64,000 bases of DNA, taken from NCBI GenBank assembly GCA_019058315.1, contig JAHPZH010000002.1, forward strand, positions 1,339,726-1,403,725. The letters are read 5' to 3'. Origin of the DNA: Candidatus Helarchaeota archaeon. Lineage in GTDB: Archaea; Asgardarchaeota; Lokiarchaeia; Helarchaeales; RDOG01. How positions within the stretch are numbered: position 1 is the stretch's first letter; every line of letters begins with the position of its first letter. Under the pieces are notes generated by a model. It was not told the origin of the DNA and ran no database searches. It saw only the letters and a program-made list of their open reading frames with translations. Both the position numbers and the translations under genes were made by a program. This document shows positions 32,787-54,982 of this stretch, one piece after another.

Positions 32787-33803
32787 TTAAACATTTGCTC
32801 GTTCAAAAAATTTTATTAATTCTTCTTGTAACTGAGCAAATTTTGGATATTTAACCTTAATTTTGTAAATATTCATCCCGACTAAATTTTTAATATCTTT
32901 ATCATGATTTGAAATCTTAATTTTATTAATAATTTCATCTACTATTAGAAAATCAGCTTGAAATTGCGTATAATGAATTATACAAGTTCCTTTTTTAATT
33001 TTTATAAAATTACGAAATACATTATTTGCATCCCTTTTTCTAAAATTCCATGTTTTTTGGCGATACTCATTTTCAATCTCTTTCAAAGCCTCTATTTCCG
33101 AATCTTTAAGGTCATCTTCAACTAATTTAGTTTTCAAAGTGGTTTCATAAGCGTTTTTCAATCCTGATATTGCTTCATCAACAGCTATTTGACGATTTAA
33201 CTCTTTATTGAGTGTTGTAATATTTTTTTCTAATTGGTTTTCCACTAAATCTTTAAATTTATTGCTAGGAACGTTTAAAATTTTGGAAAATTTTTCATAA
33301 TCAAAATCTAGAAGTATATTACCAACCATTACGCCTGCATTTTCAATCGAAACTGCGCCATTTCCTGAAATTTTTTTGTTATTTATTTGAATTTCATTAA
33401 AAACTATTTTGGAATTCAGATTTAAATCCTTTAAGAATTGGTTTGGCCCTTTTAGAGCAATTGAGTATAAATTTTTAATAGGCGATGGGAATCCAAATCC
33501 GTTAAGAATTACATTATAAAATACTTGATCTTTTTCTAAAAGGACTAGTCCTCCCCCTGCCAATCGTCTTACTAATGCAATTTTATTTTTTCCACAAAAA
33601 TCTAAATTTACTTCTTGATAAAAATTCTGATGATATCCACAACTTATTGAACTTTTATTTGTTGTAGTTAAAAGAATAATATTAGTTTGTGGAGTCTTGG
33701 AAATTTCCAAAGCTAACGCATGATATATAGCTTGAACTCGAATAGGTTCTAAATTCTTTAATATAACTAAACGCCACTTTGCTTTTTCAGAAAGCATTTT
33801 CAA
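32787..33803 (-). CDS. lplA: lipoate-protein ligase A family
   Basis: GYHQ, VRRLAGGGLV, NEIQINNKKISGNG, GNILLDFD; short degenerate C-terminal domain. Confidence 0.85.
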   Translation of the reverse strand: MKMLSEKAKWRLVILKNLEPIRVQAIYHALALEISKTPQTNIILLTTTNKSSISCGYHQNFYQEVNLDFCGKNKIALVRRLAGGGLVLLEKDQVFYNVILNGFGFPSPIKNLYSIALKGPNQFLKDLNLNSKIVFNEIQINNKKISGNGAVSIENAGVMVGNILLDFDYEKFSKILNVPSNKFKDLVENQLEKNITTLNKELNRQIAVDEAISGLKNAYETTLKTKLVEDDLKDSEIEALKEIENEYRQKTWNFRKRDANNVFRNFIKIKKGTCIIHYTQFQADFLIVDEIINKIKISNHDKDIKNLVGMNIYKIKVKYPKFAQLQEELIKFFERANV

Positions 33804-33868
33804 GTCAGATTATTTTTTTTAAATTAGTACAAAATTTTAAAAAATAAAAAAAAAGCGATAGTTTTTAG

Positions 33869-34297
33869 TTATTCTTTTTTGACATTTTTGGCAATTTCTT
33901 CTTTTACCCAAGCTTGAAAATCCGGATTGTTCACTCGAAATAAATCATTTAACTCATCTTTATTATCTGGTTTTATTTTACAAATCCAACCTTCACCATA
34001 GGGTGAACTATTCATAATAGTTGCATCATCATCAAGTTCTTCATTTGCTTCTGTAACTATGCCATTGACTGGGCCATAAATTCTACCTACCCATTTTCCA
34101 GATTCAAGACTTGCGAATGGTTTTCCTTTTTTAACTTTTGTATCCTCATCCGGGAGTTCTACATAAATAAACTCCCCTGCAAGCTGTTGGGCATAATCGG
34201 TTACACCTAAAGTTAAAACATCTCCATCATCTCTTACCCAAAAATGATGCTCTGTATAATAAAGATCGTCTGGAAAATCAAATTCATCAATTTTCAT
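33869..34297 (-). CDS. gcvH: GcvH-family lipoyl-carrier protein (LbpA-like)
   Basis: PDDLYY..HFWV, GVTDYAQ, lipoyl Lys in LESGKWVG, NSSPYGEGWI; ATG 34297 after GGAGGAG RBS. Confidence 0.9.
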   Translation of the reverse strand: MKIDEFDFPDDLYYTEHHFWVRDDGDVLTLGVTDYAQQLAGEFIYVELPDEDTKVKKGKPFASLESGKWVGRIYGPVNGIVTEANEELDDDATIMNSSPYGEGWICKIKPDNKDELNDLFRVNNPDFQAWVKEEIAKNVKKE

Positions 34298-34308
34298 TAC
34301 TTCTCCTC

Positions 34309-34608
34309 CTACATACATGATACAATTTTATTTTCAACTACTAAATCTACAAATCCATCATAATCTATGAGCTTAACATAATCATTGAGATCTTTTATAG
34401 CTCGTGCTTCTAAGTCTGCTTTTAAAGCATAGACCGCAATTCCATTTTTTTTAAATTTATCTATAATGTCTTCTGTAACTATTCCTTTTTTCGCTGCAAT
34501 TACTGCATCTTCGATTAATATAACTTTTGAATCACTTGCTTTTTTTAAATTTGAGCACTGTTCCAAATCTCTCGTATTTAAGGGGGATTTACCCATTACA
34601 TATAACAT
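34309..34608 (-). CDS. dsrH: sulfurtransferase complex subunit DsrH/TusB
   Basis: KSP..LEQC, LIEDAV, YALKADLEAR, IDYDGFVDLV. Confidence 0.88.
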   Translation of the reverse strand: MLYVMGKSPLNTRDLEQCSNLKKASDSKVILIEDAVIAAKKGIVTEDIIDKFKKNGIAVYALKADLEARAIKDLNDYVKLIDYDGFVDLVVENKIVSCM

Positions 34609-34617
34609 TTTATCACC

Positions 34618-34977
34618 TCAAAACGGAATTATATGATCGAATTGGCTTAAAACTTTTTCAAAATTATCTGGTGTGCACACTTGAGCATCGATTGTTAATT
34701 GATCCACTGTAATATTACGCTCTTTGAGAGATTGTCCGCATACATAGAACTTTTCGATATCCATCTCTTTCAAATCGGGTAATACTTGTCCCAATGCTTT
34801 CATTTCTATTGCATCAGGTTTCTGATCCTTTAATGCAACAAAAACTCCATCATGTATAAATAAGACTTCAACATCTACTTCAAATGAAGCAAGCCCCATA
34901 ATAGCCCTAATTGCTTCTGCTGCATATACCGTTCCATAAGGGGATTTTCTTATCATAATCAGTACTTTTTTTGGCAT
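34618..34977 (-). CDS. dsrF: sulfurtransferase complex subunit DsrF/TusC
   Basis: RKSPYGT..AAEAIR, LFIHDGVF, SLKERNI. Confidence 0.88.
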   Translation of the reverse strand: MPKKVLIMIRKSPYGTVYAAEAIRAIMGLASFEVDVEVLFIHDGVFVALKDQKPDAIEMKALGQVLPDLKEMDIEKFYVCGQSLKERNITVDQLTIDAQVCTPDNFEKVLSQFDHIIPF

Positions 34978-34980
34978 ACT

Positions 34981-35349
34981 TTAACCTCCAAATGTAATAA
35001 ATCTGTCAGACTCCTCTACAAAATCAGCTAATTTTCCTAAACCAACAATTTTCGTATTTTCTATTGCTGCATCTTTTGTTAAACCTCTGAATTTAGAGCA
35101 CGCCACACAAGCATAGACTTTAACACCTTGAGCTCCAATTTCCGAAAACATTTTTGCAATATTTCTTTCCCCAGGTGGAACAATCTTCTTATTAATATTA
35201 TTTACTCCATCTGTGTAAAAGAAGACCCCTGTTATTTCATGACCTTTTTTAAGAGCTGCTTTAATGAAATGATATGCAGTATCACTTGCTTGATGCTGAT
35301 AAGGACCCGTTAATACCATTATTCCTATTTTCATTTTTTTCATTTCCAT
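34981..35349 (-). CDS. dsrE: sulfurtransferase complex subunit DsrE/TusD
   Basis: TGPYQHQASDTAYHF..AAL.KGH..GVFFY.DGV, active-site ACVAC..RG, GLG.L, DRFITFG. Confidence 0.9.
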   Translation of the reverse strand: MEMKKMKIGIMVLTGPYQHQASDTAYHFIKAALKKGHEITGVFFYTDGVNNINKKIVPPGERNIAKMFSEIGAQGVKVYACVACSKFRGLTKDAAIENTKIVGLGKLADFVEESDRFITFGG

Positions 35350-35376: not shown

Positions 35377-35886
35377 CTATAATGATAAACAAGTAGGCGA
35401 TTCAGCAAGATTAAAACGAATATCTTCTTTAAAAGTTCTCAAGATAGCGTGAGAAACTATCTTTTGAATTCCCTCAATTTGTGCAATTCTTCTTGATAAT
35501 TTAGCTGCACTTTCTGCATCTACACATCTAGCCAAGCAAGCAAGTTGAAAATCGCCTGCAACCTGGTGAATATAGAGTAATTCGGGTACACAAGTTATAA
35601 GTTCTTTAGCAATTTTATTAATATCTGTTTTAGGATTTGTTTCTATAAAAAAACAAATCGGATAATTAAGGTTCAAAAAAGATGGATCAACAATTGTTGT
35701 ATACCCTATGATAATATTTTTACTCTCTAACTCCTTGATCCTTCTTCTGACTGTTGAAAAAGAAATATCTATATTCATTCTCTTTTTTAACAATCTAGCT
35801 ATTTCCCTTGGAGAATATCGCGAATCTTCTTGTAATAATTGAATAATTGCTGTATTCGTTTCATCCATCATTGAAAAATCTCTCAC
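35377..35886 (-). CDS. Lrp/AsnC family transcriptional regulator
   Basis: IIQLLQEDSR...STVRRRIKELE..IIIGYT HTH; VAGDFQ RAM domain. Confidence 0.9.
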   Translation of the reverse strand: MRDFSMMDETNTAIIQLLQEDSRYSPREIARLLKKRMNIDISFSTVRRRIKELESKNIIIGYTTIVDPSFLNLNYPICFFIETNPKTDINKIAKELITCVPELLYIHQVAGDFQLACLARCVDAESAAKLSRRIAQIEGIQKIVSHAILRTFKEDIRFNLAESPTCLSL

Positions 35887-36066: not shown

Positions 36067-36495
36067 ATGTTAAAAAAAATGGCTTTCATTGTTGGTAGCA
36101 AATCTTTTGAAAAAATGATGATGCCCTTAATAATTTCACAAACAGCTGATGCAATGGATGTAGAGGTTGATATATTTTTTACATTCTGGGGATTACAATT
36201 ATTGAAGAAAGGAGCCGCTGACAAAGCAAAAGTAGAAGGTATGCCATTTCCTATGAAAGGGATGGCTGCTTGGATGTTTAAAAAGAAATTGAAAAAATTT
36301 GGAACTGACAATCCCAGTGAAGTAATAAAAGAACTTGCTAGTAACGGTAACATTCATCTATACGCATGTAATATGACTATGGAATTGATGGGCGTTAAAA
36401 AGGAAGATTTAATTCCTGAAGTCGAGAAAGTATTAGGAGCAGCTAAATTCTTGGAAATTTGTGAGGACGCAGATCAAGTTCTAGTCTTCGCATAA
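36067..36495 (+). CDS. DsrE2/DsrE3-like sulfurtransferase (DsrE/DsrF/DrsH-like family)
   Basis: FFTFWGL, YACNMTMELMG, GAAKFL. Confidence 0.85.
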   Translation: MLKKMAFIVGSKSFEKMMMPLIISQTADAMDVEVDIFFTFWGLQLLKKGAADKAKVEGMPFPMKGMAAWMFKKKLKKFGTDNPSEVIKELASNGNIHLYACNMTMELMGVKKEDLIPEVEKVLGAAKFLEICEDADQVLVFA

Positions 36496-36523: not shown

Positions 36524-37048
36524 GTGAGTCAAACAGATAACTCAAAAATAATTCAATCTGAAGAATTAGATCCAAATTTTAAATATGAGGTGGCTAAAGA
36601 ACATGGAGGAGAACAAATTAAATTTTGTTTTCAATGTGGAACATGTGCAGCAGGTTGTCCTATTCGCACAATAAATGGGGATTTTAATCCTCGCACCATA
36701 ATACGTAAAGTTCTATTAGGTATGAGAAAAGAAGTTTTGTCAGGGAAAGAAATTTGGATGTGTAGTAATTGTTATATCTGTTATGAAAGATGCCCCCAAA
36801 ACGTTAAATTTACTGATATTATTTTTGCACTCCGTAATATTGCGGCTAGGGAAGGTTATACTCACCCCTCATTTGTAAAACAAGCTGACCTTATTCGTAA
36901 TATGGGGAGATTATACGAAGTTACAGAGTTGGAATTAGATAAAAGAGAGGATTATAATCTACCTCCAATTAATCCAACCAATGATGATTTAGATAAAGTT
37001 TTTGAAAAAACCAAAATTGAGGATAAATTAAAGAAAAGTAGGGATTGA
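36524..37048 (+). CDS. hdrC: heterodisulfide reductase subunit C
   Basis: CFQCGTCAAGCP and WMCSNCYICYERCPQ. Confidence 0.92.
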   Translation: MSQTDNSKIIQSEELDPNFKYEVAKEHGGEQIKFCFQCGTCAAGCPIRTINGDFNPRTIIRKVLLGMRKEVLSGKEIWMCSNCYICYERCPQNVKFTDIIFALRNIAAREGYTHPSFVKQADLIRNMGRLYEVTELELDKREDYNLPPINPTNDDLDKVFEKTKIEDKLKKSRD

Positions 37049-37049
37049 A

Positions 37050-37943
37050 ATGAAGAAATATTCAATATTTATTGGTTGTACTATTCCTGTAAGAGCAATG
37101 AATTATGAAATCTCTTCTAGAAAAATATTAGAACATTTAAAAGTTCCAATTCAGGAAATCGAAGAATTTACTTGTTGTGGTTATCCTGTCGAATCGGTTG
37201 ATGAAATTAGTGCTTTAACTGCTTCCGCTAAAAATTTAGCACTTGCAGAAAAATATGATACTACAATAATAACTTTATGTAGTGCTTGTACAGGAACATT
37301 AACTAAAGCAAAGACAATCCTTGATGAAAATGAAGAATTGAGAAAAAAAGTAAATGAGAATCTTGAAGTTTTAGGATTAAAATATACTAAAAAGGCTGAA
37401 ATTAAACATATTGGTAAATTTATACTCGAAGATATTGGTCCAGAAAAATTAAAAGAATTAGTAGTTACTCCATTAACTGATTTAAGAATCGCTCCTCATT
37501 ATGGTTGTCATTTTAATAAACCATCAAATATTTTTAACAATTTTGACGATACAGAATATCCTACTTCTCTGAAAATAATAATAGAGGCTCTTGGAGCCAC
37601 TTATGTTGAATATGAAAATTTAATGCAATGTTGTGGTGGAGCTGTATTAGGAGTTGATGAGAGTCTTTCATTAACTCTAGCAAGAAATAAACTACAACAT
37701 ATTAAAGATGCTGAAGCTGATGCAATCACCTTAATTTGTCCTTTTTGTTACCTAATGTATGATGTTAATCAAAAAAGAATAGAAAAAGATAGTGAAGAGA
37801 AATTTAAAATTCCCGTCTTATTTTTACCACAATTAATTGGATTAGCATTTGGAATTGATCCCAAAGAATTGGGATTAAAATTGAATCGAGTAAAGCCCAA
37901 GGAAATTCTAGCAAAGATAGAAATGTTAAGTGGAGGTAAATAA
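37050..37943 (+). CDS. hdrB: heterodisulfide reductase subunit B
   Basis: GCTIP, TCCG, CSAC, HYGCH, QCCGG, CPFC: two intact CCG domains. Confidence 0.93.
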   Translation: MKKYSIFIGCTIPVRAMNYEISSRKILEHLKVPIQEIEEFTCCGYPVESVDEISALTASAKNLALAEKYDTTIITLCSACTGTLTKAKTILDENEELRKKVNENLEVLGLKYTKKAEIKHIGKFILEDIGPEKLKELVVTPLTDLRIAPHYGCHFNKPSNIFNNFDDTEYPTSLKIIIEALGATYVEYENLMQCCGGAVLGVDESLSLTLARNKLQHIKDAEADAITLICPFCYLMYDVNQKRIEKDSEEKFKIPVLFLPQLIGLAFGIDPKELGLKLNRVKPKEILAKIEMLSGGK

Positions 37944-41062: not shown

Positions 41063-41293
41063 ATGGTTGAAAAAGATGAAACATTAGATTGTTTAGGGCT
41101 ATTATGTCCGGCACCTATAGTTAAATTATCTAAAAAAGTTAAAAAAATGGAATCTGGAAAAATATTAGAACTTATCGCAGATGATGAGGGTGCTCTAGAA
41201 GACGTACCTGCCTGGTGCCGAAAAACAGGAAATGAACTAGTGGAAAGTAAAACTGAAAATGGTGTCTATAAGTTCTATGTCAAAAAAACATAA
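41063..41293 (+). CDS. tusA: sulfur carrier TusA
   Basis: LDCLGLLCPAP, ADDEGA..DVPAWC..TGN. Confidence 0.92.
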   Translation: MVEKDETLDCLGLLCPAPIVKLSKKVKKMESGKILELIADDEGALEDVPAWCRKTGNELVESKTENGVYKFYVKKT

Positions 41294-41543: not shown

Positions 41544-44500
41544 TTGGCGAATAATATTCTTGTGCTAGGTGGTGGAATAAGCGGAATACAAGCTTCACTC
41601 GACCTAGCTGAAATGGGGCTGCGCGTTTTCTTAGTTGAATCTTCTCCAAGTATTGGAGGTAGAATGGCTCAGCTAGACAAGACATTTCCGACCAATGACT
41701 GCTCTATATGCATTCTTGCGCCAAAAATGGTCGAATGTGCACGCCATCCAAATATAACCATCTTATCCTATAGTGAGCTTAAAGAAGTTAATAAAAAAAA
41801 TGATGTTTTTACAGTTAAAATATTAAAGAAGCCACGTTATGTTGATGAAATTAAATGTACTGGTTGTAGAGACTGTTTCACTGTATGCCCCATAGAAGTA
41901 CCAAATGAATTTGACCAAAATCTTAGAAATAGAAATGCAATTTATATTCCTTTTCCACAAGCAGTCCCTAACATCGCCACAATTGACAAAGAAAATTGTA
42001 TTAATTGTGAGGCATGTTCAAAAAAATGTAAAACTGATGCCATTAATTATGATCAAAAACCTGAATTGATTGAACTAGAGGTTCAATCCATAATTGTTTC
42101 TATTGGCTTTGATTTATTTGATCCGAGTAAAATTTTACAATATGGTTATAAAAAATTTAAAAATGTTCTAACTTCTCTTGAATTTGAACGATTATTAAGT
42201 GCTTCTGGACCAACTCAAGGTGAAATATTAAAACTTTCAGATGGAAAATCACCTAAACACATTACTTTTATTCAATGTGTAGGTTCAAGAAGCACTAAAT
42301 ACCAACCTTATTGTTCGAAAATATGTTGTGTCTATACAACGAAAGAATCCATTGTAGCCAAGGAACATAATCCAAACATTCAGATTTCCATTTTATATAA
42401 TGATTTACGTGCATTAGGGAAGGGTTTCCGGGAATTTATTAATCGTGGAGAAATAGAATACGGTATAAATTATATTAAAGCACTTCCTGGGGAAATTTCA
42501 GAGGATCCTATAACTAAAAAATTATACGTGTCTTATGAAAACATGGATACGGGAGAATTTGAGATTCTAGAAACTGATATTGTTGTATTAGCTCCCGCAA
42601 TGGTTCCAAAAAAAGATATTGAGCAAATATCTAATATTTTAGGTATTAAACTTGATAAATATGGGTTTTTTAAATGTGAACCATATTCTCCATTAGTTAC
42701 AGATATTCCAGGTATCTATGTGACTGGGACCTGTTCTGGTCCTAAGGATATTCCGGAATCTGTAGGAGAAGGAAGTGGTGGGGCAGCAAGTGCTTTAGTT
42801 CCAAATGAACAAGAACATCAACCAATCCCTGAAAAACAACCAAAGCTGGAAAATACCTCACCAGCCCAACCAAGGATAGGTGTATTTATCTGTCATTGTG
42901 GAGTAAATATCGGTGGAATTGTTGATATAAAAGAAGTGGCGGATTATATCAGATCTTTAAATAATGTCGTTTTTGTTGCTGAAAACTTATATACTTGCTC
43001 AGAAGATACTCAAAAAATAATTAAAGATAAGATTAAGGAATTAAATCTTAATAGAGTGATTGTTGCTTCTTGTACCCCAAGCACCCATGAACCTTTATTT
43101 AGAAAAACTTGTGAAGAAGCTGGACTAAACCCATACTTATTTGATCTAGCAAATATTCGTGAGCAAAATTCATGGGTTCATCAAAGAGAACCAGAAAAGG
43201 CAACTGAAAAGGCCAAAGATATAATTCGAATGTATGTTAAACGATCACAATATTCTAGTCCTTTAACTAAAATTAAAACAGAAGTCACTTCATCGGCATT
43301 GGTAATTGGGGGTGGGATTTCAGGCTTAATTGCTTCAAAAACCATTGCTAATAAAGGATTTAAAGTATTTTTAATTGAAAAAGAGGATAAATTGGGAGGT
43401 TTAATAAAAGATCTTTATAAATTATATCCAAATGAGAAAAATCCTGAAGATATATTAAACCCTATTATATCTGATGTGATAAAAAATAAAAATATAGAGG
43501 TTTTAACGTCTACTCGAATTGAAAATATAACAGGATCAATTGGTAATTTTGAAATTTTAGCGTTTAAAAATAATAAAGAATTCAATTTCAATGTAGGTAC
43601 AATTATCGTTGCGATTGGTGCAAATGAATCAAAACCAGATGGATTGTATGGTTACAAAAAAAATGCTAACGTTTATACACAGTCTGAATTTGAACAAATT
43701 CTAAGTTCAAATAAAGTAAAAAATGATGAAAAAATTGTTATGATTCTTTGTGCTGGAGTTGGGAAAGGAGAGAAAATTGCATATTGTTCCTCCATCTGCT
43801 GCATGGAAGCATTTAAAAATGCCTTAATTCTAAAAAAACAAGCTCCTAATTCAGAAATCATTATTTTATATAAGGATATTTGTGTATTTGGAGATGGTGA
43901 AGAAGTATATAGAACAGTTAGGGAAGAAGGTATTCAATTTATAAAATATAATGCGAAAGAGGATATAAAAATTCTCGAATCTAAAGGAATTAAGATAAAT
44001 ATTTCAGTTTTTAATAGTTTTCTGAATAAAGATGTAAAAATTGTAGCGGATCGAATTGTTTTATCTACTCCAATGATACCAGCAACAGATACTGAAGATT
44101 TATCAAAATTACTGAGAGTACCTTTAGCTTACAATGGATTCTTTTTAGAGGCACATGTAAAACATAGACCACTCGATTTTACAAATGATGGAATTTATCT
44201 TTGTGGATCTTGTCAAAGTCCAAAATCTATCTCCGAATGTATCGCACAAGCTAAAGGAGCAGCAGCTAGAGCTCTAATACCTTTAATTAAGGGCGAGGTT
44301 GAAAGTGAAGCAATAATATCAGAGGTGAATCCCGAAATTTGTGTGGGTTGTGAAATTTGTGAATTACATTGTCCTTATGGTGCAATTACTGTCCAAAAAG
44401 ATGAAAATGAAGATCTTAAAGCTCAAGTTAATCCAAGTTTATGTAAAGGCTGCGGAATTTGTGCAGCAAGCTGTCCTGTAGATGCAATAACAATGAAAAA

Positions 44501-44981
44501 TTTCACAAATGAGCAAATTCTCTCTATGGTTCAAACTGCAAAACAAGATTCTTCATTAAAAGATGAGACTATAATCATAGCTTTTTTATGTAATTGGTGT
44601 TCTTATCAAGGAGCTGATAATGCGGGAGTAAGTAGATTTCAATATCCAACATCAATAAGACCTATTAGGGTAATGTGCACGGGAAGAATAAGTATAAGCC
44701 ATATTTTAAATGCTTTTAAAGCAGGTGCTGATGGTGTACTTATCGCAGGCTGCCATCCGGGAGATTGCCATTATGTGGACGGTAATTTAAGTGCAGAGAG
44801 AAAAGTAAACTTAGCGAAACAGTTATTAAATAAAATAGGAATTAACGAGCGAAGACTTCGCCTAGAATGGATATCTGCAAGTGAAGGTAAAAAATATGCA
44901 TCTGTTGTAAAAGACTTTCTTAACGAGTTAGAAGAATTAAAGACCAAAAAGGAAATGGTTGTGAGGGTTAAAGACTATTGA
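41544..44981 (+). CDS. hdrA: large HdrA fused to C-terminal MvhD
   Basis: Two FAD modules as in the first HdrA; C-terminal FLCNWCSY..CTGR..GCHPGDCHY..WISASEG MvhD [2Fe-2S] domain. Confidence 0.92.
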   Translation: MANNILVLGGGISGIQASLDLAEMGLRVFLVESSPSIGGRMAQLDKTFPTNDCSICILAPKMVECARHPNITILSYSELKEVNKKNDVFTVKILKKPRYVDEIKCTGCRDCFTVCPIEVPNEFDQNLRNRNAIYIPFPQAVPNIATIDKENCINCEACSKKCKTDAINYDQKPELIELEVQSIIVSIGFDLFDPSKILQYGYKKFKNVLTSLEFERLLSASGPTQGEILKLSDGKSPKHITFIQCVGSRSTKYQPYCSKICCVYTTKESIVAKEHNPNIQISILYNDLRALGKGFREFINRGEIEYGINYIKALPGEISEDPITKKLYVSYENMDTGEFEILETDIVVLAPAMVPKKDIEQISNILGIKLDKYGFFKCEPYSPLVTDIPGIYVTGTCSGPKDIPESVGEGSGGAASALVPNEQEHQPIPEKQPKLENTSPAQPRIGVFICHCGVNIGGIVDIKEVADYIRSLNNVVFVAENLYTCSEDTQKIIKDKIKELNLNRVIVASCTPSTHEPLFRKTCEEAGLNPYLFDLANIREQNSWVHQREPEKATEKAKDIIRMYVKRSQYSSPLTKIKTEVTSSALVIGGGISGLIASKTIANKGFKVFLIEKEDKLGGLIKDLYKLYPNEKNPEDILNPIISDVIKNKNIEVLTSTRIENITGSIGNFEILAFKNNKEFNFNVGTIIVAIGANESKPDGLYGYKKNANVYTQSEFEQILSSNKVKNDEKIVMILCAGVGKGEKIAYCSSICCMEAFKNALILKKQAPNSEIIILYKDICVFGDGEEVYRTVREEGIQFIKYNAKEDIKILESKGIKINISVFNSFLNKDVKIVADRIVLSTPMIPATDTEDLSKLLRVPLAYNGFFLEAHVKHRPLDFTNDGIYLCGSCQSPKSISECIAQAKGAAARALIPLIKGEVESEAIISEVNPEICVGCEICELHCPYGAITVQKDENEDLKAQVNPSLCKGCGICAASCPVDAITMKNFTNEQILSMVQTAKQDSSLKDETIIIAFLCNWCSYQGADNAGVSRFQYPTSIRPIRVMCTGRISISHILNAFKAGADGVLIAGCHPGDCHYVDGNLSAERKVNLAKQLLNKIGINERRLRLEWISASEGKKYASVVKDFLNELEELKTKKEMVVRVKDY

Positions 44982-47900
44982 CAAACAATGAGATAATTAA
45001 AAAATACAATAACCTATTAATTATAGGCGCAGGACTTGCAGGCATGGAATGTGCCCTCGATCTCGCCGATGCGGGCTATAAAGTCTATTTGGTTGAAAAC
45101 AAGTCCTCTATTGGGGGAAAATATGCACAAATATATAAAATATTTCCTTATGACGAATGCGGTGCCTGTATTTTAACACCTAAAATGAATCAAGTTGGTA
45201 AACACCCCAATATTGAAAATATTACTCTTGCAGAAATAAAAGGTGTGAAAGGGTCTCTAGGAAATTTTGAAGTTACTATTTTAAAACATCCAAGGTATGT
45301 GGATGAAGATAAATGCACAGGATGTGGGAAATGTATAGAAACCTGTCCTGTGGAAGTTTCAAACGAATATGATCTGGGATTATCTAAAAGAAAAGCAATT
45401 TATCTAGATTTTGCACAACAAATACCATTCGTAGTTACTATTGATAAAGATAATTGCATAGATTGTAGAATGTGTGTTCAAAGATGTAAAGCTGAAGCAA
45501 TAGACCATGATATGAAGGAAAAAGAAATTATATTACAAGTTGGGGCAATTATTATCAGTACAGGTTTTGAAGAATTTGATCCCTCTATAAAAGAAGAATA
45601 CGGGTTTAAACGTTATAAAAACGTAATTACAAGTTTAATGTATGAAAGAATGACTCATCCGGCAGGTCTGGACAATATATCACGTCTATCTGATGGTAGA
45701 AAACCAAGAAGGGTAGTCTTTGTTAATTGTGTAGGAGCAAGAGACGAAAGTATTGGAAACTTATATTGTAATAAAGTATGTTGTATGTTCTCAATGAAAA
45801 ATGCAAGGAATTTACGATTGCATGAACCAGATGCGGAAATTATTATTTGCTATATTGATATAAGGGCTGCTGGCAAATTATTCGAAAGATATTATCGCTC
45901 TACTTTAGAACAATATGGAATCAAATTTATTAGGGGTAGAGTTAGTGAAATTTTAGAAGATCCTAATACAAAAGATCTGACAGTTCGTCTAGAAGACACA
46001 GAAGGAGCTGAACCGATCTCTCTTGAGAATGTAGACTATGTAATTTTAAATTGCTCATTTGTACCTTCCGAAGGAACTAAAAAAATGGCAGAATTCTTTA
46101 ATTTAGAACTCGGCTCTGATGGATTTATCCAAGATTTTCATTCTAATATAGGAGCTATTGAAACAAAAATACCTGGAGTTTATGTAATCGGAACTGCTCA
46201 TGGTCCAAAGGATGGTACGGATGTAATTGCCGAATCAAAGGCTGCAGCTTCAGCTTGTACTGCAGATCTTCCTCCATTGTCAAGAGATTTAAAGGAAAAA
46301 ATAATCGAAAAGAAAGAAATTGATGAATCTAAACTAAGAGTGGGTGTATTTGTTTGTCATTGTGGAGGGATTATTTCACATACTGTTGATGTTAAAGAAT
46401 TGGTTGAGAAATTAAAAGAAGATCCTGATATTGAATTTGTTCAAGATTACATATTCATGTGTTCTAGTCCTGGTCAAGATTTAATAAGAGAAAGTATAAA
46501 GAAATATAATTTAAATCGAATTATTGTAGCATCTTGCAGTCCACTTATCCATGAGCCTACATTTCGCGGTTGTGTAGAATCAACTGGGCTTTCACGCTTT
46601 TATTTCGAGGGTCCTATAAATATTAGAGAACAATGCGCCATGGTACATAAGGACTACCCCGAAGATGCCACCACGAAGGCTTTGGCTTTAATTAAAGGTG
46701 GGGTAGCGAGAGTTTCACGCTTAAGAGAGGTCCCTATAGAAAAATTGGATGTAAAAAAATCAGTTTTAATTTTAGGTGGAGGGGCTTCAGGGATAACTGC
46801 TGGAATTGATTTAGCCAAAAAAGGATTAACTGTTTATATAATCGAGAAAGAAGAGGAAATTGGAGGTAGATTAAATAAATTATATAAATTATTTCCCCAT
46901 AAAGATGATGCACAAGAAATTTTGAAAGAATTAAAAACCAAAATAAAGCTTTATAAAAATATAATTATACACACATCAAGTAGAATTACAAATTTTTCCG
47001 GTCGCATTGGGGATTATAATGTTAAAATTAATAAAAATGGAAAAGAAATAGAATTAAATGTTGGTTCTATAATCGTTTCTATTGGTACTAAGGTTTATAC
47101 GCCGGAAATTGGCGAATATTGCTTTGGAGAAACTAAAAATGTTATCACCTCTTTAGATCTTGAAGAAATGCTCAAAAATGACTCTTTAAAAGACCCTGTA
47201 TCTATAGCTTTTATTCAATGTGTTGGTTCAAGAGCGTATCCTGGGGAAAAAGGGCACATTCATTGCTCTAGAGTGTGCTGTAATTCAGCTATTAAAAATG
47301 CTGAAATTATTAAAGAGAAATTTCCAAATTCTAACGTATTTATTTTATACAAAGAGTTTTTGAGAGTATATGGCCGTTTTATGGAAGAAAAATATATCGA
47401 TACGCAGATGAAGGGTGTTAATTTTATCAGATGGCTTAAAGATAAACCACCCCAAGTAGAAGTTGATTCGAAATCGAATAAGATTATGATATCTGTATAT
47501 GATTCACTATTGCAAGATGAGATAAAAATTACGGCAGACTACCTCGTTTTATCAGTGGGTCAAGAATCTCCAGAAGATTTAGATAATTTATGCAACATTC
47601 TTGGGATAACAAAATCCATTGATGGGTTCGTTGAAGAAATGCATATTAAATTTCGCCCAGTTGAAACTAAGGTTCCTGGAATTTATTCTTCATCCTCATT
47701 TCCCAAAGACATAGCTGATTCTATCGCTCTTGCTCGTGGTGCAGCAAGCAAAGTCGCGATACAACAGAAGGGTATTGAATTAGAATTAACAACTGCTGAA
47801 GTGGATGAGTCAGTTTGTGTTGGTTGTGGATTATGTGAGGCTGTTTGTCCATATGAGGCGATAAAAATGGTCGCAATAAAACCTGGCAAAATAATCTCGG

Positions 47901-48028
47901 TAACTGATACAATAAAATGTCAAGGATGTGGTACATGCGTAGCATCTTGCCCCATAGGTGCAAGAGATCACAGATGGTGGCGTGATTCTCAATATCTTGC
48001 TCAAATAGACGCAATATTAAATGAATAA
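44978..48028 (+). CDS. hdrA: large HdrA paralog (divergent)
   Basis: GAGLAG, PYDECGACILTP, NCVGAR, CHCG, GGGASG, QCVGSR, terminal 2x[4Fe-4S]. Confidence 0.9.
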   Translation: MTNNEIIKKYNNLLIIGAGLAGMECALDLADAGYKVYLVENKSSIGGKYAQIYKIFPYDECGACILTPKMNQVGKHPNIENITLAEIKGVKGSLGNFEVTILKHPRYVDEDKCTGCGKCIETCPVEVSNEYDLGLSKRKAIYLDFAQQIPFVVTIDKDNCIDCRMCVQRCKAEAIDHDMKEKEIILQVGAIIISTGFEEFDPSIKEEYGFKRYKNVITSLMYERMTHPAGLDNISRLSDGRKPRRVVFVNCVGARDESIGNLYCNKVCCMFSMKNARNLRLHEPDAEIIICYIDIRAAGKLFERYYRSTLEQYGIKFIRGRVSEILEDPNTKDLTVRLEDTEGAEPISLENVDYVILNCSFVPSEGTKKMAEFFNLELGSDGFIQDFHSNIGAIETKIPGVYVIGTAHGPKDGTDVIAESKAAASACTADLPPLSRDLKEKIIEKKEIDESKLRVGVFVCHCGGIISHTVDVKELVEKLKEDPDIEFVQDYIFMCSSPGQDLIRESIKKYNLNRIIVASCSPLIHEPTFRGCVESTGLSRFYFEGPINIREQCAMVHKDYPEDATTKALALIKGGVARVSRLREVPIEKLDVKKSVLILGGGASGITAGIDLAKKGLTVYIIEKEEEIGGRLNKLYKLFPHKDDAQEILKELKTKIKLYKNIIIHTSSRITNFSGRIGDYNVKINKNGKEIELNVGSIIVSIGTKVYTPEIGEYCFGETKNVITSLDLEEMLKNDSLKDPVSIAFIQCVGSRAYPGEKGHIHCSRVCCNSAIKNAEIIKEKFPNSNVFILYKEFLRVYGRFMEEKYIDTQMKGVNFIRWLKDKPPQVEVDSKSNKIMISVYDSLLQDEIKITADYLVLSVGQESPEDLDNLCNILGITKSIDGFVEEMHIKFRPVETKVPGIYSSSSFPKDIADSIALARGAASKVAIQQKGIELELTTAEVDESVCVGCGLCEAVCPYEAIKMVAIKPGKIISVTDTIKCQGCGTCVASCPIGARDHRWWRDSQYLAQIDAILNE

Positions 48029-48034
48029 AAATAT

Positions 48035-48460
48035 ATGGTGTTAAAATTTCCCCCTAAACAACCAGTAATTTTAATGTTTGCCTGTATGAGATGCAGTTAT
48101 ACTGCTTCAGACCTAGCGGGAACATTAAAAATTCAATACAATCCAATAGTTCGTATTATAAGGGTTCCTTGTACGGGAAGAGTTGATATTATTCATATAT
48201 TGCGAGGAATAGTTGATGGTGCTGATGCAGTTCTCGTAGTTGGTTGTCATAAAGGGGATTGCGGATTTATTTCAGGAAATCTAGCTGCTGAAAGACGAGT
48301 GAAATTTGTAAGAAACTTATTAAAACAGATGAATATTAATCCTGATCGCGTTCAAATGCACTATGTTTCAGCCGCAGAAGCAAATGAAGTAGTCGAAATT
48401 ATAGAAAAAGTAGCTAAACAGGTTGCAAAAATGGGTCCCTCACCGTTTAGAACAAAATGA
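48035..48460 (+). CDS. mvhD: MvhD-like [2Fe-2S] subunit
   Basis: FACMRCSY..DLAG, VPCTGRV, GCHKGDC, VSAAE. Confidence 0.9.
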   Translation: MVLKFPPKQPVILMFACMRCSYTASDLAGTLKIQYNPIVRIIRVPCTGRVDIIHILRGIVDGADAVLVVGCHKGDCGFISGNLAAERRVKFVRNLLKQMNINPDRVQMHYVSAAEANEVVEIIEKVAKQVAKMGPSPFRTK

Positions 48461-48476
48461 AATGGAATTGATTTGA

Positions 48477-48764
48477 TTGGACGAAGAGAAAGAAAAATTA
48501 AACAAAATCATAAAACAATTGGAAAAAACAAAGGACAAGGATAGTAATGATTGGAAAAAAATCACTACAGAACACAAAGAAGAATTTGAAGTAATAAAGA
48601 AATCATATCGTGAAAAGCAAAATGAGTTGAGACAACTAATCCAAGATAAAAAAACAGGAATTGTAATGGGAGAAGAATTTGATAAAAGACTTGATGAATT
48701 ACAGAACGAATTAACTGAACTTGAATTCAAAATTTATAAATTAAGAATAGGCAGAGGCAGTTAA
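48477..48764 (+). CDS. small coiled-coil protein within the hdr operon
   Basis: 95 aa, highly charged heptad pattern, tight spacing on both sides. Confidence 0.65.
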   Translation: MDEEKEKLNKIIKQLEKTKDKDSNDWKKITTEHKEEFEVIKKSYREKQNELRQLIQDKKTGIVMGEEFDKRLDELQNELTELEFKIYKLRIGRGS

Positions 48765-48769
48765 AAATT

Positions 48770-50065
48770 ATGCAAAATAAAGCAATTATTATCGGAAATG
48801 GACTTGCTGCATTACAAGCAGCAATTGAATTAGCTGATTTAGGGGTCAAAGTAAGTCTCATTTCCAATCAAGACTCTTTAGGAGGTAATGCCAAGAATTT
48901 ATACAAGGCATTTCCAACAGATGATTGTTTTTACTGTATTAGTTCGATAAAGGAAAAATGTGGTATTAGAAAATGCTTTTATCGTGCAGGAATATGGGAA
49001 CATCCAAATATTGTAGTTTATTTAGATTCACAAATTTCAAAAATTGAAGGTGAAATAGGAAATTTTAAAATTGCCCTTAAACAAAACCCCCAGTATATTG
49101 ACCATAATAAATGCATTCAATGTGGGGAATGTGAACGTATATGCCCAATATTAATGGATATTGATGATGAATTGGGAATTAGAAAAAGAAAAGCAATTTA
49201 TCATAGATTACAAAATATTCCATATTCTTATTTCATTCAGAGAGAATATTGCGATTCAAATTGTACAAAATGTGAAGAAATCTGCCCTATAAATGCTATT
49301 AATTTAAATTCCTCATCTGAAAATCATAATTTAACAGCTAGTATAATCATAATCGCCAGTTCTTATTCCGAATATAACCCTTCTGAATTAAAAGAATATC
49401 ATTACGGTGAGTTTCCTAATGTTATTACTCAAGTTCAATTAGCTAGAATGTTAGATCCTACTGGTCCGACTCAAGGAAAATTAGTAAGAATGACCGATTT
49501 AAAACCAGCAAAGAAGATTTTAATGTTACAATGCGTCGGATCACGGGATGACAATACAAATAAATATTGTAGTGAGATATGTTGCACTTTTGCGTGCAAA
49601 CATGCCGAAATTATAAAAAAAGAACGTGAAAATCAAGCGCAAATAACTATTGTATACAAAGATATTAGAACAGATGGATTTTATGAGATAAATTATAGAA
49701 ATTGTAGAGAATTGGGAATTGATTTCTTAAAAGGTCACATATCTGATATTGTAGAAAAAGACAATACATTACAAATTTTAGTTTTTGATGTTATTTTAAA
49801 TAGGCATATCGAATTTGAAGTGGATTTATTAATTTTAACTTGTGCTTTAGTTCCCTCCGATCTTTCTAAATCGATTATGAACCAATTTAATATCGAATTA
49901 AAGGAAAATGGATTTCCCAATACGAGTTTTGATCTAATTGAAAGTTCAAGAAAGGGAATATTTCTATGCGGTTCTTCAATTAAGCCAATTTCAATTCCAG
50001 AATCAATTAATCTGGCAAAGGCAGCTGCATTTAAAGCATTTCAAAGTTTAAGGAGTGATAGTTGA
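48770..50065 (+). CDS. HdrA N-terminal module (QmoA-like), degenerate FAD motif
   Basis: GNGLAA, FPTDDCFYC, CIQCGEC..CP, QCVGSRD, CSEICC. Confidence 0.85.
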   Translation: MQNKAIIIGNGLAALQAAIELADLGVKVSLISNQDSLGGNAKNLYKAFPTDDCFYCISSIKEKCGIRKCFYRAGIWEHPNIVVYLDSQISKIEGEIGNFKIALKQNPQYIDHNKCIQCGECERICPILMDIDDELGIRKRKAIYHRLQNIPYSYFIQREYCDSNCTKCEEICPINAINLNSSSENHNLTASIIIIASSYSEYNPSELKEYHYGEFPNVITQVQLARMLDPTGPTQGKLVRMTDLKPAKKILMLQCVGSRDDNTNKYCSEICCTFACKHAEIIKKERENQAQITIVYKDIRTDGFYEINYRNCRELGIDFLKGHISDIVEKDNTLQILVFDVILNRHIEFEVDLLILTCALVPSDLSKSIMNQFNIELKENGFPNTSFDLIESSRKGIFLCGSSIKPISIPESINLAKAAAFKAFQSLRSDS

Positions 50066-52208
50066 AAAAATGGATAGAGATTCTAGCAAAATTCCGGTTT
50101 TTATTTGTACTTGCGGAGACAAATTAAAAGAAAAATTAGATTATGAAAAAATAAGAAAAGAAATTCAGGAATTTCATTCTCCCAACCCGGTTAAAATACT
50201 TAAATTTCTGTGTATTGAGGAAGATAAAAATAAAATTCTCGAGACTTTAGATAAATCTACAAATAAATTTGTTGTTGCAGCTTGTACACCACAGAAATTA
50301 GAATATGAATTAAGAACATTTTTAAGAACTCATGGAAAAGACCCATTTTCATTTGATATTGCAAATATTCGTGAGCATTGTGCTTGGGTGCATGAAAATA
50401 AAGCCCTTGCAACCGAAAAAGCAATTGCTTTAATTAAATCTTCAATAGAAAGAATAAAATATGCTCCAAAAATTAATGAAGATAAAATCAAGATTCAAAA
50501 ACATGTCCTAATTATTGGAGCAGGCATTTCTGGACTACAAACTGCTATAAACCTAAAATCTTTGGGTTATAAAGTTGTAGTATTGGAAAAAGAATCTTCA
50601 GCAGGTGGACATGTTGGTAAATTATCTAAAATTTATCCATTTGGCATAAAAGGTAAGGTATTAATTGATGAGAAATTGGATTTAATTGAAAAAAATAATA
50701 TTAATATCATATACAATTGTCAAGTCAATTGGATTAGCGGTTCATTTGGTAATTTTAAATGCAATATAACAATAGATTCAGGGGAAGAACAAATTAAAAA
50801 CACCTCTGCAATTGTTATAGCTACTGGTCATAAAGTATTTGAACCTAATAACCTTTTACAATATAAATATGGAATATCACCTGATATTATAACACTTTTC
50901 GAACTATCAAATATTTTAAATAATAATAGTTCGTCAAAAAAAGAATTAATTAGATTAAGTAACGGAAAACCAGTTAAAAATATTCTTATGGTTCAATGTG
51001 TAGGCTCTAGAGATGTTAACAATTTTGAATACTGCAGTAAATATTGTTGTACCTCAGCTATAGATCATGCCATTGAAGTAAAGGAGAAATTTAAAGATGT
51101 TAATATTACCATAAATTACTTCGATATCCGCACACCATTTGAACAAGAGGCAATATATCGTGAAGCTAGGGGACTGGGAATTGATTTTTTCAGGGGTAAA
51201 ATCGGGGAGATAAGTATTGATGATAACAATCAATTAATTACTCAAGCTATGGATACTATAATTGGAAATTTAGTAGAATTAAAAAGTGATTTAGTAGTTT
51301 TGTCTACTGCATTAATACCTAATCTAGAAAATAATCAATTATTCGAATTATTAAATTTAGAATTCAGAAATGGAGGGTTTATTAAAGAATATTATGATAA
51401 ATTGAAAAAACTAGAAACAAAAAGAAAAGGAATCTATGTCTGTGGAACAGTTTCTGGTCCAAAAACAATTCCACAGTGCATTTATGAAGCTCATGCTGTT
51501 AGTTTAAAAGTTTTTCAAGAAATAGGGGATGGAGAAATAACAAAAAATCTAACGGTTACCACCATAGATGAAGATTTATGTAATGGTTGCGAACTTTGTG
51601 CGAGAATTTGCCCTTTTAACATTCCAATCATGAAAGAAGTGGGGAACGAATTAAAAGCTGAAATAGATCCCTTTAGTTGCAAGGGCTGTGGAATTTGTGC
51701 TAGTATTTGTCCAACAGGAGCAGCACAATTACAGACAAACTTAAGGGATCAATTAATTATACAAATAAAAGCCATTTTAAAAGATATAAAGGAATCAAAA
51801 GATTCCATAATCTTGGGATTTGTTTGTGATGAATGTGGGTACGCTACAATAGATGCAGCTGGTATATTGAATACACCATATTCAGAAAAGGTGAGATTCA
51901 TTAGATTACCTTGTATTGGGCGTCTTTCCCTACTGGATATATTTACTGCATTTGCAGAAGGTGCAAGTGGAGTTCTACTTATTGGATGTGCAAAAGAAAG
52001 ATGCCATTATCTTAAAGGAAGTTCAAAAACTGAAATTGAAGTCGCAATTACAAAGGAGATTTTGAAGGAAATAGGCTGGGAGCCTGAAAGAATTGAATAT
52101 CATGGTATGTTTCATGCAGAACCAGAGAAATTTCTTAATGCAGTGAAAGAAATGGTTGAAAAGATGAATAAATTGGGTATTACCAAGATTTTAAAAAATA
52201 AGGAATGA
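50055..52208 (+). CDS. HdrA C-terminal module fused to MvhD (QmoB-like)
   Basis: CTCG, ACTP, NIREHCAWVH, GAGISG, QCVGSRD, 2x[4Fe-4S], FVCDECGY..LPCIGR..GC..RCHY; probable ATG 50070. Confidence 0.88.
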   Translation: MIVEKMDRDSSKIPVFICTCGDKLKEKLDYEKIRKEIQEFHSPNPVKILKFLCIEEDKNKILETLDKSTNKFVVAACTPQKLEYELRTFLRTHGKDPFSFDIANIREHCAWVHENKALATEKAIALIKSSIERIKYAPKINEDKIKIQKHVLIIGAGISGLQTAINLKSLGYKVVVLEKESSAGGHVGKLSKIYPFGIKGKVLIDEKLDLIEKNNINIIYNCQVNWISGSFGNFKCNITIDSGEEQIKNTSAIVIATGHKVFEPNNLLQYKYGISPDIITLFELSNILNNNSSSKKELIRLSNGKPVKNILMVQCVGSRDVNNFEYCSKYCCTSAIDHAIEVKEKFKDVNITINYFDIRTPFEQEAIYREARGLGIDFFRGKIGEISIDDNNQLITQAMDTIIGNLVELKSDLVVLSTALIPNLENNQLFELLNLEFRNGGFIKEYYDKLKKLETKRKGIYVCGTVSGPKTIPQCIYEAHAVSLKVFQEIGDGEITKNLTVTTIDEDLCNGCELCARICPFNIPIMKEVGNELKAEIDPFSCKGCGICASICPTGAAQLQTNLRDQLIIQIKAILKDIKESKDSIILGFVCDECGYATIDAAGILNTPYSEKVRFIRLPCIGRLSLLDIFTAFAEGASGVLLIGCAKERCHYLKGSSKTEIEVAITKEILKEIGWEPERIEYHGMFHAEPEKFLNAVKEMVEKMNKLGITKILKNKE

Positions 52209-54442: not shown

Positions 54443-54443
54443 A

Positions 54444-54980
54444 ATGACAGATATTAATTCAGATATAGAATTAAAAGAACCAATAAAAATGGAAGATGTA
54501 GATCCTGAATTTAAGTATGAAATTGCCGACACTGATGAAGGTAAAACTATCTTATATTGCTATCAATGTGGTACCTGTTCAAGTAGTTGCCAGAGTGCAT
54601 GTGCTGATTTATATCCTCATCAAATAATTCGAATGGCATTACTTGGACTAAAAAAAGAAGTGTTGAATTCAAAATCCATATGGATATGTACAACCTGCTA
54701 TGATTGCATAGAACGCTGTCCACAAGGAGTTGAAGTTGCAAATGTGCTTTTTGCGATTAAAAATATTGCCGTAAAAGAAAACATTATCCCTAAAGGTTTT
54801 AAATTATTTGCAAAAAATATTTTCAGGATGGGTAGGGGCGCTGAAATTACAGATATGCAAGAAGATGAAAGAGATGATTTGGATCTGCCACCAGTTCCAA
54901 AAGTCGATAAAGAAGCCATTAAAAAAATGTTAAAAAAAGTAAATTTTGAGGAAATGATTGAATCTAAAGAAGGAAAATAA
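54444..54980 (+). CDS. hdrC: heterodisulfide reductase subunit C (second copy)
   Basis: CYQCGTCSSSC and WICTTCYDCIERCPQ. Confidence 0.92.
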   Translation: MTDINSDIELKEPIKMEDVDPEFKYEIADTDEGKTILYCYQCGTCSSSCQSACADLYPHQIIRMALLGLKKEVLNSKSIWICTTCYDCIERCPQGVEVANVLFAIKNIAVKENIIPKGFKLFAKNIFRMGRGAEITDMQEDERDDLDLPPVPKVDKEAIKKMLKKVNFEEMIESKEGK

Positions 54981-54982
54981 AA

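Follow-up and report, generated by a model that had tools for sequence, protein, structure and literature searches.

Organization of the locus

We analyzed a stretch of 64,000 nucleotides from Candidatus Helarchaeota archaeon (assembly GCA_019058315.1, contig JAHPZH010000002.1, positions 1,339,726 to 1,403,725 of the forward strand), in the following called the window, in which the gene for an H-protein with a predicted lipoyl site lies directly behind dsrE, dsrF and dsrH and opposite to genes for a heterodisulfide reductase (Hdr). The window is the end of the contig that we term C5, and the genome has a size of 5.8 Mb and a G+C content of ~31%. Its completeness is 94.29% with 6.61% contamination, which sets the scope for all genome-wide absences given below. 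The proteins of the window have their closest named relatives in metagenome-assembled genomes (MAGs) of Promethearchaeota.

On the minus strand an asnC-type regulator gene is followed by dsrE, dsrF, dsrH and the gcvH-like gene, with gaps of only 3, 9 and 11 nt from dsrE to the carrier gene. A gap of 180 bp separates this unit from the divergent plus-strand unit dsrE2-like-hdrC-hdrB-hdrA-tusA (Table 1). The carrier ATG at 34297 is preceded at a distance of 5-6 nt by a GGAGGAG box, which overlaps the stop codon of dsrH (TAGGAGGAG). Both the closely spaced gene order and the ribosome-binding site over the end of dsrH had been noted in a preliminary description of this sequence and were confirmed here. 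An alternative in-frame ATG lies upstream at 34318 and would overlap dsrH; position 34297 is the likelier start because the orthologues begin with MKI(D/E). The orthologues of dsrE start at the methionine of MKIG.

Downstream of the carrier gene, after a spacer of 65 nt, lies the gene for a homologue of lipoate-protein ligase (LplA). The spacer (33804-33868) contains a T9 and a T6 run, followed by an A/T-rich, TATA-like stretch, and therefore the ligase gene may be a separate transcription unit. A scan for sigma-70 promoters and intrinsic terminators gave no more sites than in shuffled sequences, with models that are unsuited to an archaeon.

Table 1. Genes of the two divergent units and of the adjoining hdr region, with positions in the window and the evidence for their assignment.
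Feature	Position	Strand	Evidence
hdrA-mvhD fusion, second double hdrA, free mvhD	41544..48460	+	
tusA, 76 aa, CPAP motif	41063..41293	+	Pfam TusA 92.6 bits
double-module hdrA, 1014 aa	37930..40974	+	
hdrB	37050..37943	+	two CCG domains; in GcvHx-linked HdrB clade (tree)
hdrC	36524..37048	+	two 4Fe-4S ferredoxin motifs; 44-49% identity to HdrC of bacterial hdrCB-gcvHx clusters
DsrE2-like sulfurtransferase	36067..36495	+	first gene of divergent unit; Pfam DrsE_2 108.9 bits
Lrp/AsnC-type regulator	35377..35886	-	first gene of minus-strand unit; Pfam HTH_AsnC + AsnC_trans_reg
dsrE, 122 aa	34981..35349	-	Pfam DsrE 107.6 bits; TIGR03012 89.9 (cut-off 89.25)
dsrF, 119 aa	34618..34977	-	Pfam DsrE family 86.5 bits; TIGR03010 96.7 (cut-off 94.15)
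dsrH, 99 aa	34309..34608	-	Pfam DsrH 75.9 bits; TIGR03011 83.2 (cut-off 49.2)
gcvH-like lipoyl carrier (GcvHx), 142 aa	33869..34297	-	Pfam GCV_H 136.3 bits
lipoate-protein ligase homologue	32787..33803	-	Pfam LplA-B_cat 105.4 bits; TIGR00545 only 104 (cut-off 280)

The carrier is placed outside the glycine cleavage system

The carrier has its predicted lipoyl lysine, Lys68, in the motif ESGKWVGR, contains Cys106 as the sole cysteine and none at the termini, and has a pI of 4.42. Lys68 is invariant in 43 members of the carrier family. The protein passes the GcvH models NF002270 (138.5, cut-off 117) and, barely, TIGR00527 (119.1, cut-off 115.85), and 13 of its 13 matches in the PDB are GcvH. However, GcvP (PF02347) and GcvT (PF01571) have no match in the genome, and among six GCV_H matches, including the carrier, there is a canonical paralogue with the motif ESTKAVSD, encoded beside a SerA-like gene and conserved in all Lokiarchaeia searched. 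In a maximum-likelihood tree (142 columns) this paralogue is one of 47 canonical rows on one side of a branch with an SH-aLRT of 97 and a length of 0.58, and the carrier lies with all ESGKW-type proteins on the other side. Because of the missing GcvP and GcvT, the separate canonical paralogue and the position outside the canonical clade, the carrier is predicted not to be a component of glycine cleavage.

The motif ESGKWVGR is common to 65 of 120 database relatives, proteins of ~142 aa that mostly possess Cys106 and have a pI of 4.1-4.6. Three relatives carry ESGKWVGPVP together with Cys7 and Cys144, the published signature of LbpA, and a close relative of these three (P0259), with the same motif and the two cysteines, is encoded within a type II sHdr cluster composed of CCG, HdrA, hyp, HdrB3, EtfBA, EMO, two lbpA, lplA and dsrE. 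This bears out the preliminary description, which had placed the lipoyl lysine in ESGKWVG, had seen that terminal cysteines are missing and had assigned the motif to LbpA proteins of sulfur metabolism. References for LbpA were chosen by signature and gene context; by sequence no LbpA is present in the PDB. With these references the carrier shares the context of the lysine, but it lacks their cysteines, is more acidic (pI 4.42 versus 5.03) and has no Etf, EMO or short sHdrA beside it, whereas LbpA belongs to sHdr gene sets of the form shdrC1B1AHC2B2 or C1B1AHB3-etfAB-emo. LbpA proteins are described as having a higher pI than GcvH (> ~4.5) and a basic surface towards the ligase (preprint 10.64898/2026.10.01.755906). 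As our quick tree does not resolve the branching among the ESGKW groups, no sister relationship to LbpA is claimed. We assign the carrier to a putative, distinct ESGKWVGR subfamily of Hdr-associated, LbpA-like H-proteins.

The genome encodes one E2-type lipoyl protein and, on another contig next to the region of the E2 gene, a canonical LipA (375 bits, cut-off 310). The LplA homologue beside the carrier gene is diverged, and a comparison with solved ligases (best E-value 3e-15) did not assign it to the sLpl(AB) or the Lpl(AB) type. LipS1/S2 genes do not adjoin the carrier gene, although no search aimed at LipS1/S2 was made.

Other H-proteins of the genome differ from the carrier in their lysine context. 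A divergent pair of GKG type (L003/L004, C5 ~639700-643600; LQAGKGW and AEAGKGV) lies between hdrC-hdrB and cdhC, the gene for acetyl-CoA synthase beta, and a comparable pair is found beside hdrB-hdrC (L060) in G001, a genome of the same family. In addition, two fusions of 320-330 aa combine an N-terminal GCV_H-like domain with a small GTPase of the Ras family (Ras 170 bits). In these proteins (L005, C5:39328-40320; L006, C1:48309-49271) the lipoyl lysine is lost (AIESEHGM and SIAIVNGM).

The carrier and HdrCB travel together

The surroundings of H-protein genes were scanned in one genome per named species, which gave 19 loci with ESGKWVGR and 61 other loci. In 18 of the 19 the carrier gene comes immediately after an hdrA-like gene, Fer4/MvhD, hdrC and hdrB in the same orientation; the remaining locus lies at the edge of its contig. 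Hdr neighbors are absent from all 61 other H-protein loci. The 19 loci belong to Desulfomonilaceae, Syntrophaceae, Desulfarculaceae and other Thermodesulfobacteriota or 'delta' MAGs, and the same linkage of hdrCB and carrier is seen on metagenome contigs. Other GKW-type carriers were found beside HdrA/MvhD/HdrCB or LplA in Asgard archaea by a profile search of 400 species genomes.

The HdrB tree gives the same picture. HdrB of the window, together with that of contigs L011 and L007, is sister to the bacterial carrier-linked HdrB, and this joint clade (SH-aLRT 98) contains neither the HdrB linked to DsrE2 in other Lokiarchaeia nor any of the ten further HdrB paralogues that the tree includes from the same genome. 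The shared clade indicates that carrier and HdrB travel together; on synteny and phylogeny, HdrCB and not DsrEFH is the carrier's predicted oldest and most constant partner.

The bacterial operon (L074-L092) comprises a short hdrA-like gene, a Fer4/MvhD fusion, hdrC, hdrB and the ESGKWVGR carrier, and seems to represent a lipoyl-carrier type of Hdr that has not been described so far. In the window itself an Hdr supercluster extends from 41544 to 55861. It contains the hdrA-mvhD fusion, a second hdrA of 1016 aa, a free mvhD and a split hdrA-like pair with a fused MvhD, and also a gene for a Fer4 protein of 745 aa and another hdrC-hdrB pair. Mtd and Fwd-type genes are likewise present, and neither a hydrogenase nor another enzyme with an evident role in electron input is encoded in the 64 kb.

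DsrE, DsrF and DsrH retain the features of a DsrC-type relay

The three paralogues, in the order E-F-H, all pass the models for TusD/C/B-DsrE/F/H. In alignments with the Allochromatium vinosum proteins (PDB 2hy5, chains A and C for DsrE and DsrH), Cys81 of DsrE (CVAC) corresponds to Cys78 and Cys18 of DsrH (LEQC) to Cys20, so the two cysteines that had been pointed out in the preliminary description are the expected ones. Cys81 is invariant in 20 Lokiarchaeial DsrE. The DsrH of the window ends in ..VSCM; its penultimate residue, Cys98 (codons 98-99 at 34312-34317), stands in place of a Trp found in all 90 other DsrH compared and is confined to DsrH preceding the lipoyl carrier.

We also compared which gene follows dsrH. 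From 80 metagenome dsrH loci, 63 had room downstream, and the next gene was dsrC in 44, tusA in 6, dsrE2 in 1, the carrier in 1 and unresolved in 11. Genes were called dsrC by a Cys-x10-PxGC[VI] tail, which Pfam confirmed in three cases with 140-162 bits. The earlier statement that the lipoyl carrier occupies the DsrC position is thus literally true, and among the 63 loci the arrangement is found in this lineage only. The cysteine at the Cys20 position of DsrH is present in 43 of 44 DsrC-linked proteins, in 5 of 5 carrier-linked rows (4 distinct contigs), in 2 of 8 TusA-linked and in 0 of 10 Lokiarchaeial Hdr-linked proteins. As these counts come from related sequences, which are not independent, the distribution is suggestive only, and what it would suggest is a DsrC-type use of the carrier.

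DsrC/TusE (PF04358) and the sulfite reductase domain NIR_SIR (PF01077) have no match in the genome, and DsrAB and DsrMK were not found there either. In the preliminary description the idea of the carrier as sulfur acceptor was to fall if the carrier nested within canonical glycine-cleavage H proteins and a dsrC/tusE elsewhere in the genome took the sulfur of this DsrEFH; the tree and the genome search showed neither the nesting nor a dsrC/tusE. For MnmA, model PF03054 gave matches of at most 30 bits in the genome, which are of the PP-loop type, and since it also matches 14 of 14 control genomes it is unspecific.

Conservation and history of the arrangement

The unit asnC-dsrE-dsrF-dsrH-gcvH-like recurs on three more contigs, L010, L011 (identical to L193) and L158, so that the four genes from dsrE to the carrier are kept on four contigs in total. 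The full layout on both strands is present on L158, and L010 and L011 show the minus-strand unit only. The DNA of these contigs is only 72-75% identical to that of the window, and the arrangement is thus not due to chance. The AsnC gene is kept beside dsrEFH on all three, and in other Lokiarchaeia it is found divergent beside tusA-dsrEFH. The ligase gene is less constant, as on L010 a peptidase gene and not lplA lies downstream of the carrier.

In other Lokiarchaeia the order is asnC<>tusA-dsrE-dsrF-dsrH-dsrE2-hdrC-hdrB-hdrA-mvhD. In these operons sulfur relay and Hdr form a unit. With the DsrE of other Lokiarchaeia that of the window shares only 30-39% identity, but with the DsrE of Anaerolineae/Chloroflexi MAGs 59-69%. 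Two contigs labelled Anaerolineae/Chloroflexi (L159 and L160) carry dsrE-dsrF-dsrH-tusA-dsrE2 with a DsrE 63-64% identical to that of the window; upstream of this cassette lie a Nitro_FeMo-Co-domain gene and the gene for an ArsR-type regulator, and Hdr, DsrC and H-protein are absent from it. The Promethearchaeota contig L007 shows the order hdrA-hdrB-hdrC<>carrier-hdrC-hdrB without dsrEFH, which indicates that the hdr<>carrier divergon is older and received the relay cassette by insertion. The simplest history would therefore be an insertion with subsequent spread, which put dsrEFH before the carrier, dsrE2 before hdrC and tusA behind hdrA. A close orthologue of the carrier was not found in 40 related species genomes, in which the best identity was 46-50%.

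A possible role of the carrier in sulfur transfer

From these data we propose, with a probability that we place a little short of even, that the lipoyl carrier is coupled to HdrCBA/MvhD and takes up or reduces sulfane sulfur relayed by TusA, DsrEFH and DsrE2, in a manner similar to DsrC. The carrier would be lipoylated on Lys68, probably by the neighboring LplA homologue, with LipA being encoded elsewhere. The dithiol/disulfide arm of the carrier would serve as substrate of the adjacent HdrCB, which would be wired to the HdrA and MvhD modules. TusA, DsrEFH and DsrE2 may form a persulfide relay feeding sulfane sulfur into the lipoyl couple; the reduced arm would take or reduce the sulfur on Cys81 of DsrE, thereby playing the two-thiol role that DsrC has for DsrEFH, and Hdr would regenerate it. 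On balance the pathway would most likely run reductively, from bound S0 to H2S, and act as an electron sink. This direction is favored because no sulfite reductase was found in the genome and because the host is an anaerobe with many Hdr/MvhD modules. That dihydrolipoate reduces the sulfur of thiosulfate through a sulfurtransferase is old chemistry (PMC6067878).

A complex prediction of DsrE, DsrF and DsrH with the carrier yielded a score of 0.37 (best control 0.00), with at least 86% contact agreement between runs and a partner pLDDT of at least 88. Of 80 solved complexes, 58 attain the mark for a complex, as do 2 of 110 mismatched pairs; both of these pairs, but only 7 of the 80 complexes, do so with scores of at most 0.60. 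The prediction thus lends weak support to a contact between DsrEFH and the carrier, in a range of scores in which a pass is false more often than true.

This limit of the prediction weighs against the proposal, and so do several other observations. The lipoyl couple, with a potential of ~-290 mV, is a poor high-potential acceptor for bifurcation. The two cysteines of LbpA are missing from the carrier, and no YeeE-type sulfur importer was found. In the carrier-linked Hdr clusters of Desulfobacterota there is no DsrE or TusA within 8 kb, and the operons of other Lokiarchaeia described above do without an H-protein; carrier-free relay-Hdr operons and relay-free carrier-Hdr clusters together imply that each half works alone. 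In the 29 top-ranking H-protein loci of the 400 Asgard species genomes no carrier is preceded by dsrEFH, nor is this adjacency present in the 40 close-relative species genomes. It goes back to a single evolutionary event within a narrow lineage, and the position of the carrier behind dsrH could be an accident of the insertion.

In the main rival explanation the locus holds two co-regulated but separate functions, the carrier being a dithiol/disulfide redox partner of HdrCB only, as in Desulfobacterota, and the relay handing its persulfide sulfur straight to Hdr or another sink, as in other Lokiarchaeia, without contact of the carrier with the sulfur on DsrEFH. It fits the occurrence of each module alone elsewhere, among others in the L007 divergon, and the greater similarity of DsrE to Anaerolineae/Chloroflexi than to Lokiarchaeia, which speaks for a separate origin of the relay. 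However, an insertion accident does not readily account for the spacing reminiscent of translational coupling (the 11-nt gap and the ribosome-binding site over the dsrH stop), which is kept on four diverged contigs. The spread of the cassette's tusA and dsrE2 into the hdr operon suggests integration, and Cys18 is retained and Cys98 new in carrier-linked DsrH. Given also the weak pass in the complex prediction, we consider separate functions somewhat unlikely. The idea of the preliminary description that the carrier is the direct acceptor of DsrEFH sulfur stands in part: the DsrC-type cysteine of DsrH, Cys98 and the weak complex pass are circumstantial evidence for it, whereas the constancy of HdrCB as partner and the carrier-free relay operons count against it.

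Its second idea, that DsrEFH and TusA supply sulfur for lipoyl assembly, is not supported. In this or a related form, with the carrier and LplA as lipoyl-relay scaffold for the single E2, it would agree with the LplA homologue next to the carrier gene and with the single E2-type lipoyl protein and the lack of a GcvPT match in the genome, and in Bacillus subtilis GcvH is a lipoyl-relay protein. But the genome has a canonical LipA on another contig, and LipA draws sulfur from its own auxiliary cluster. The canonical GcvH paralogue would be the better candidate for a relay, LplA is absent downstream of the carrier on L010, and the strict hdrCB synteny of the family, which in Desulfobacterota occurs with no sulfurtransferase nearby, would be left unexplained. 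Lipoate assembly or relay is therefore improbable. Chance neighborhood of housekeeping genes, namely TusBCD for tRNA 2-thiouridine and an H-protein of glycine cleavage, is what annotation pipelines imply by their names (JGI calls DsrE relatives 'tRNA 2-thiouridine synthesizing protein D'), and the NCBIfam GcvH models are indeed narrowly passed. Yet TusE/DsrC, GcvP and GcvT have no match, those for MnmA are low, the tree puts the carrier outside canonical GcvH and the Hdr synteny is conserved, which makes this explanation very improbable.

Going beyond the coupling of carrier, Hdr and relay at this locus, a lipoylated H-protein might be the physiological 'heterodisulfide' of methanogen-type HdrABC/MvhD in non-methanogenic archaea and Desulfobacterota, and in the present lineage also the analogue of DsrC, with sulfane sulfur bound as lipoyl persulfide or trisulfide and reduced by Hdr to H2S. 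In this general form the idea is on balance somewhat unlikely; if true, it would describe a cytoplasmic sulfur-reducing electron sink that has not been described before.

Significance and comparison with known systems

Which substrate HdrABC-type enzymes use in the absence of CoM-S-S-CoB is a long-standing question for Asgard archaea, syntrophs and many Desulfobacterota. The ESGKWVGR lipoyl carrier is a concrete, expressible candidate for a sulfur or disulfide substrate of Hdr, and the locus offers a natural system in which this carrier would be wired to a complete persulfide relay in the stead of DsrC. If the proposal is true, the concept of lipoate in sulfur metabolism would extend from the aerobic sulfur oxidizers with sHdr-LbpA to anaerobes, and it would bear on the models of hydrogen-sulfur syntrophy for Asgard archaea. 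A literature search for DsrEFH, GcvH and lipoate together found no paper.

The nearest known systems are the sHdr-LbpA pathways of sulfur oxidation, types I and II, with TusA/DsrE3 sulfurtransferases and sLpl(AB)/LipS1/S2 (Cao et al., 2018, PMC6067878; Tanabe et al., 2024, PMC11094781). In common with them the locus has an ESGKW-type, GcvH-like carrier encoded beside HdrB/HdrC-type CCG proteins and without a role in glycine cleavage, as well as TusA, DsrE-family sulfurtransferases and an own lipoate ligase homologue. In contrast, the Hdr of the window is of the methanogen type, with double HdrA of 1000 aa and MvhD, where sHdr has a short sHdrA, sHdrH and HdrC2B2 or EtfAB-EMO. The carrier is acidic and has no N- and C-terminal cysteines, a heterotrimeric DsrEFH takes the place of DsrE3, and the host is an anaerobic Asgard archaeon in which the direction is probably reductive.

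With the DsrEFH-DsrC relay, known from Allochromatium vinosum (PMC3397948) and as type II DsrEFH from cable bacteria and sulfate reducers (PMC13293266), the locus shares dsrE-dsrF-dsrH followed by the gene for a small carrier, which here as there would offer two thiols, the equivalents of DsrE Cys78 and DsrH Cys20, and a TusA. It differs in that this carrier is a predicted lipoyl protein and not DsrC, in the extra penultimate cysteine of DsrH and in the lack of any DsrAB, DsrMK or NIR_SIR protein found in its genome.

Two proposals come from non-methanogenic archaea that, like the present one, have Hdr without CoM/CoB. In Ca. Culexarchaeia GcvH is co-located with HdrA2B2C2/HdrBC in an Ehe hydrogenase cluster and was proposed as disulfide carrier for HdrB (PMC9723716), and in the Asgard archaeon Nerearchaeum Hdr was proposed to reduce persulfides bound to TusA/DsrE (bioRxiv 10.1101/2025.07.22.663070). 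Both are brief, genome-based ideas that were kept separate, whereas here the two elements are united in one divergon, and the carrier subfamily and the HdrB clade are defined and seen to occur jointly in different phyla. From sHdr-LbpA systems, lipoyl carriers that go with Hdr-like enzymes and sulfurtransferases were known before, and the links of GcvH with HdrB and of Asgard Hdr with persulfides are already in print. What the present comparison of sequences and gene neighborhoods adds is a putative cysteine-poor, acidic ESGKWVGR subfamily of carriers, tied to one HdrB clade in Desulfobacterota and Asgard archaea, and a lineage in which this predicted carrier replaces DsrC behind a DsrC-type DsrEFH.

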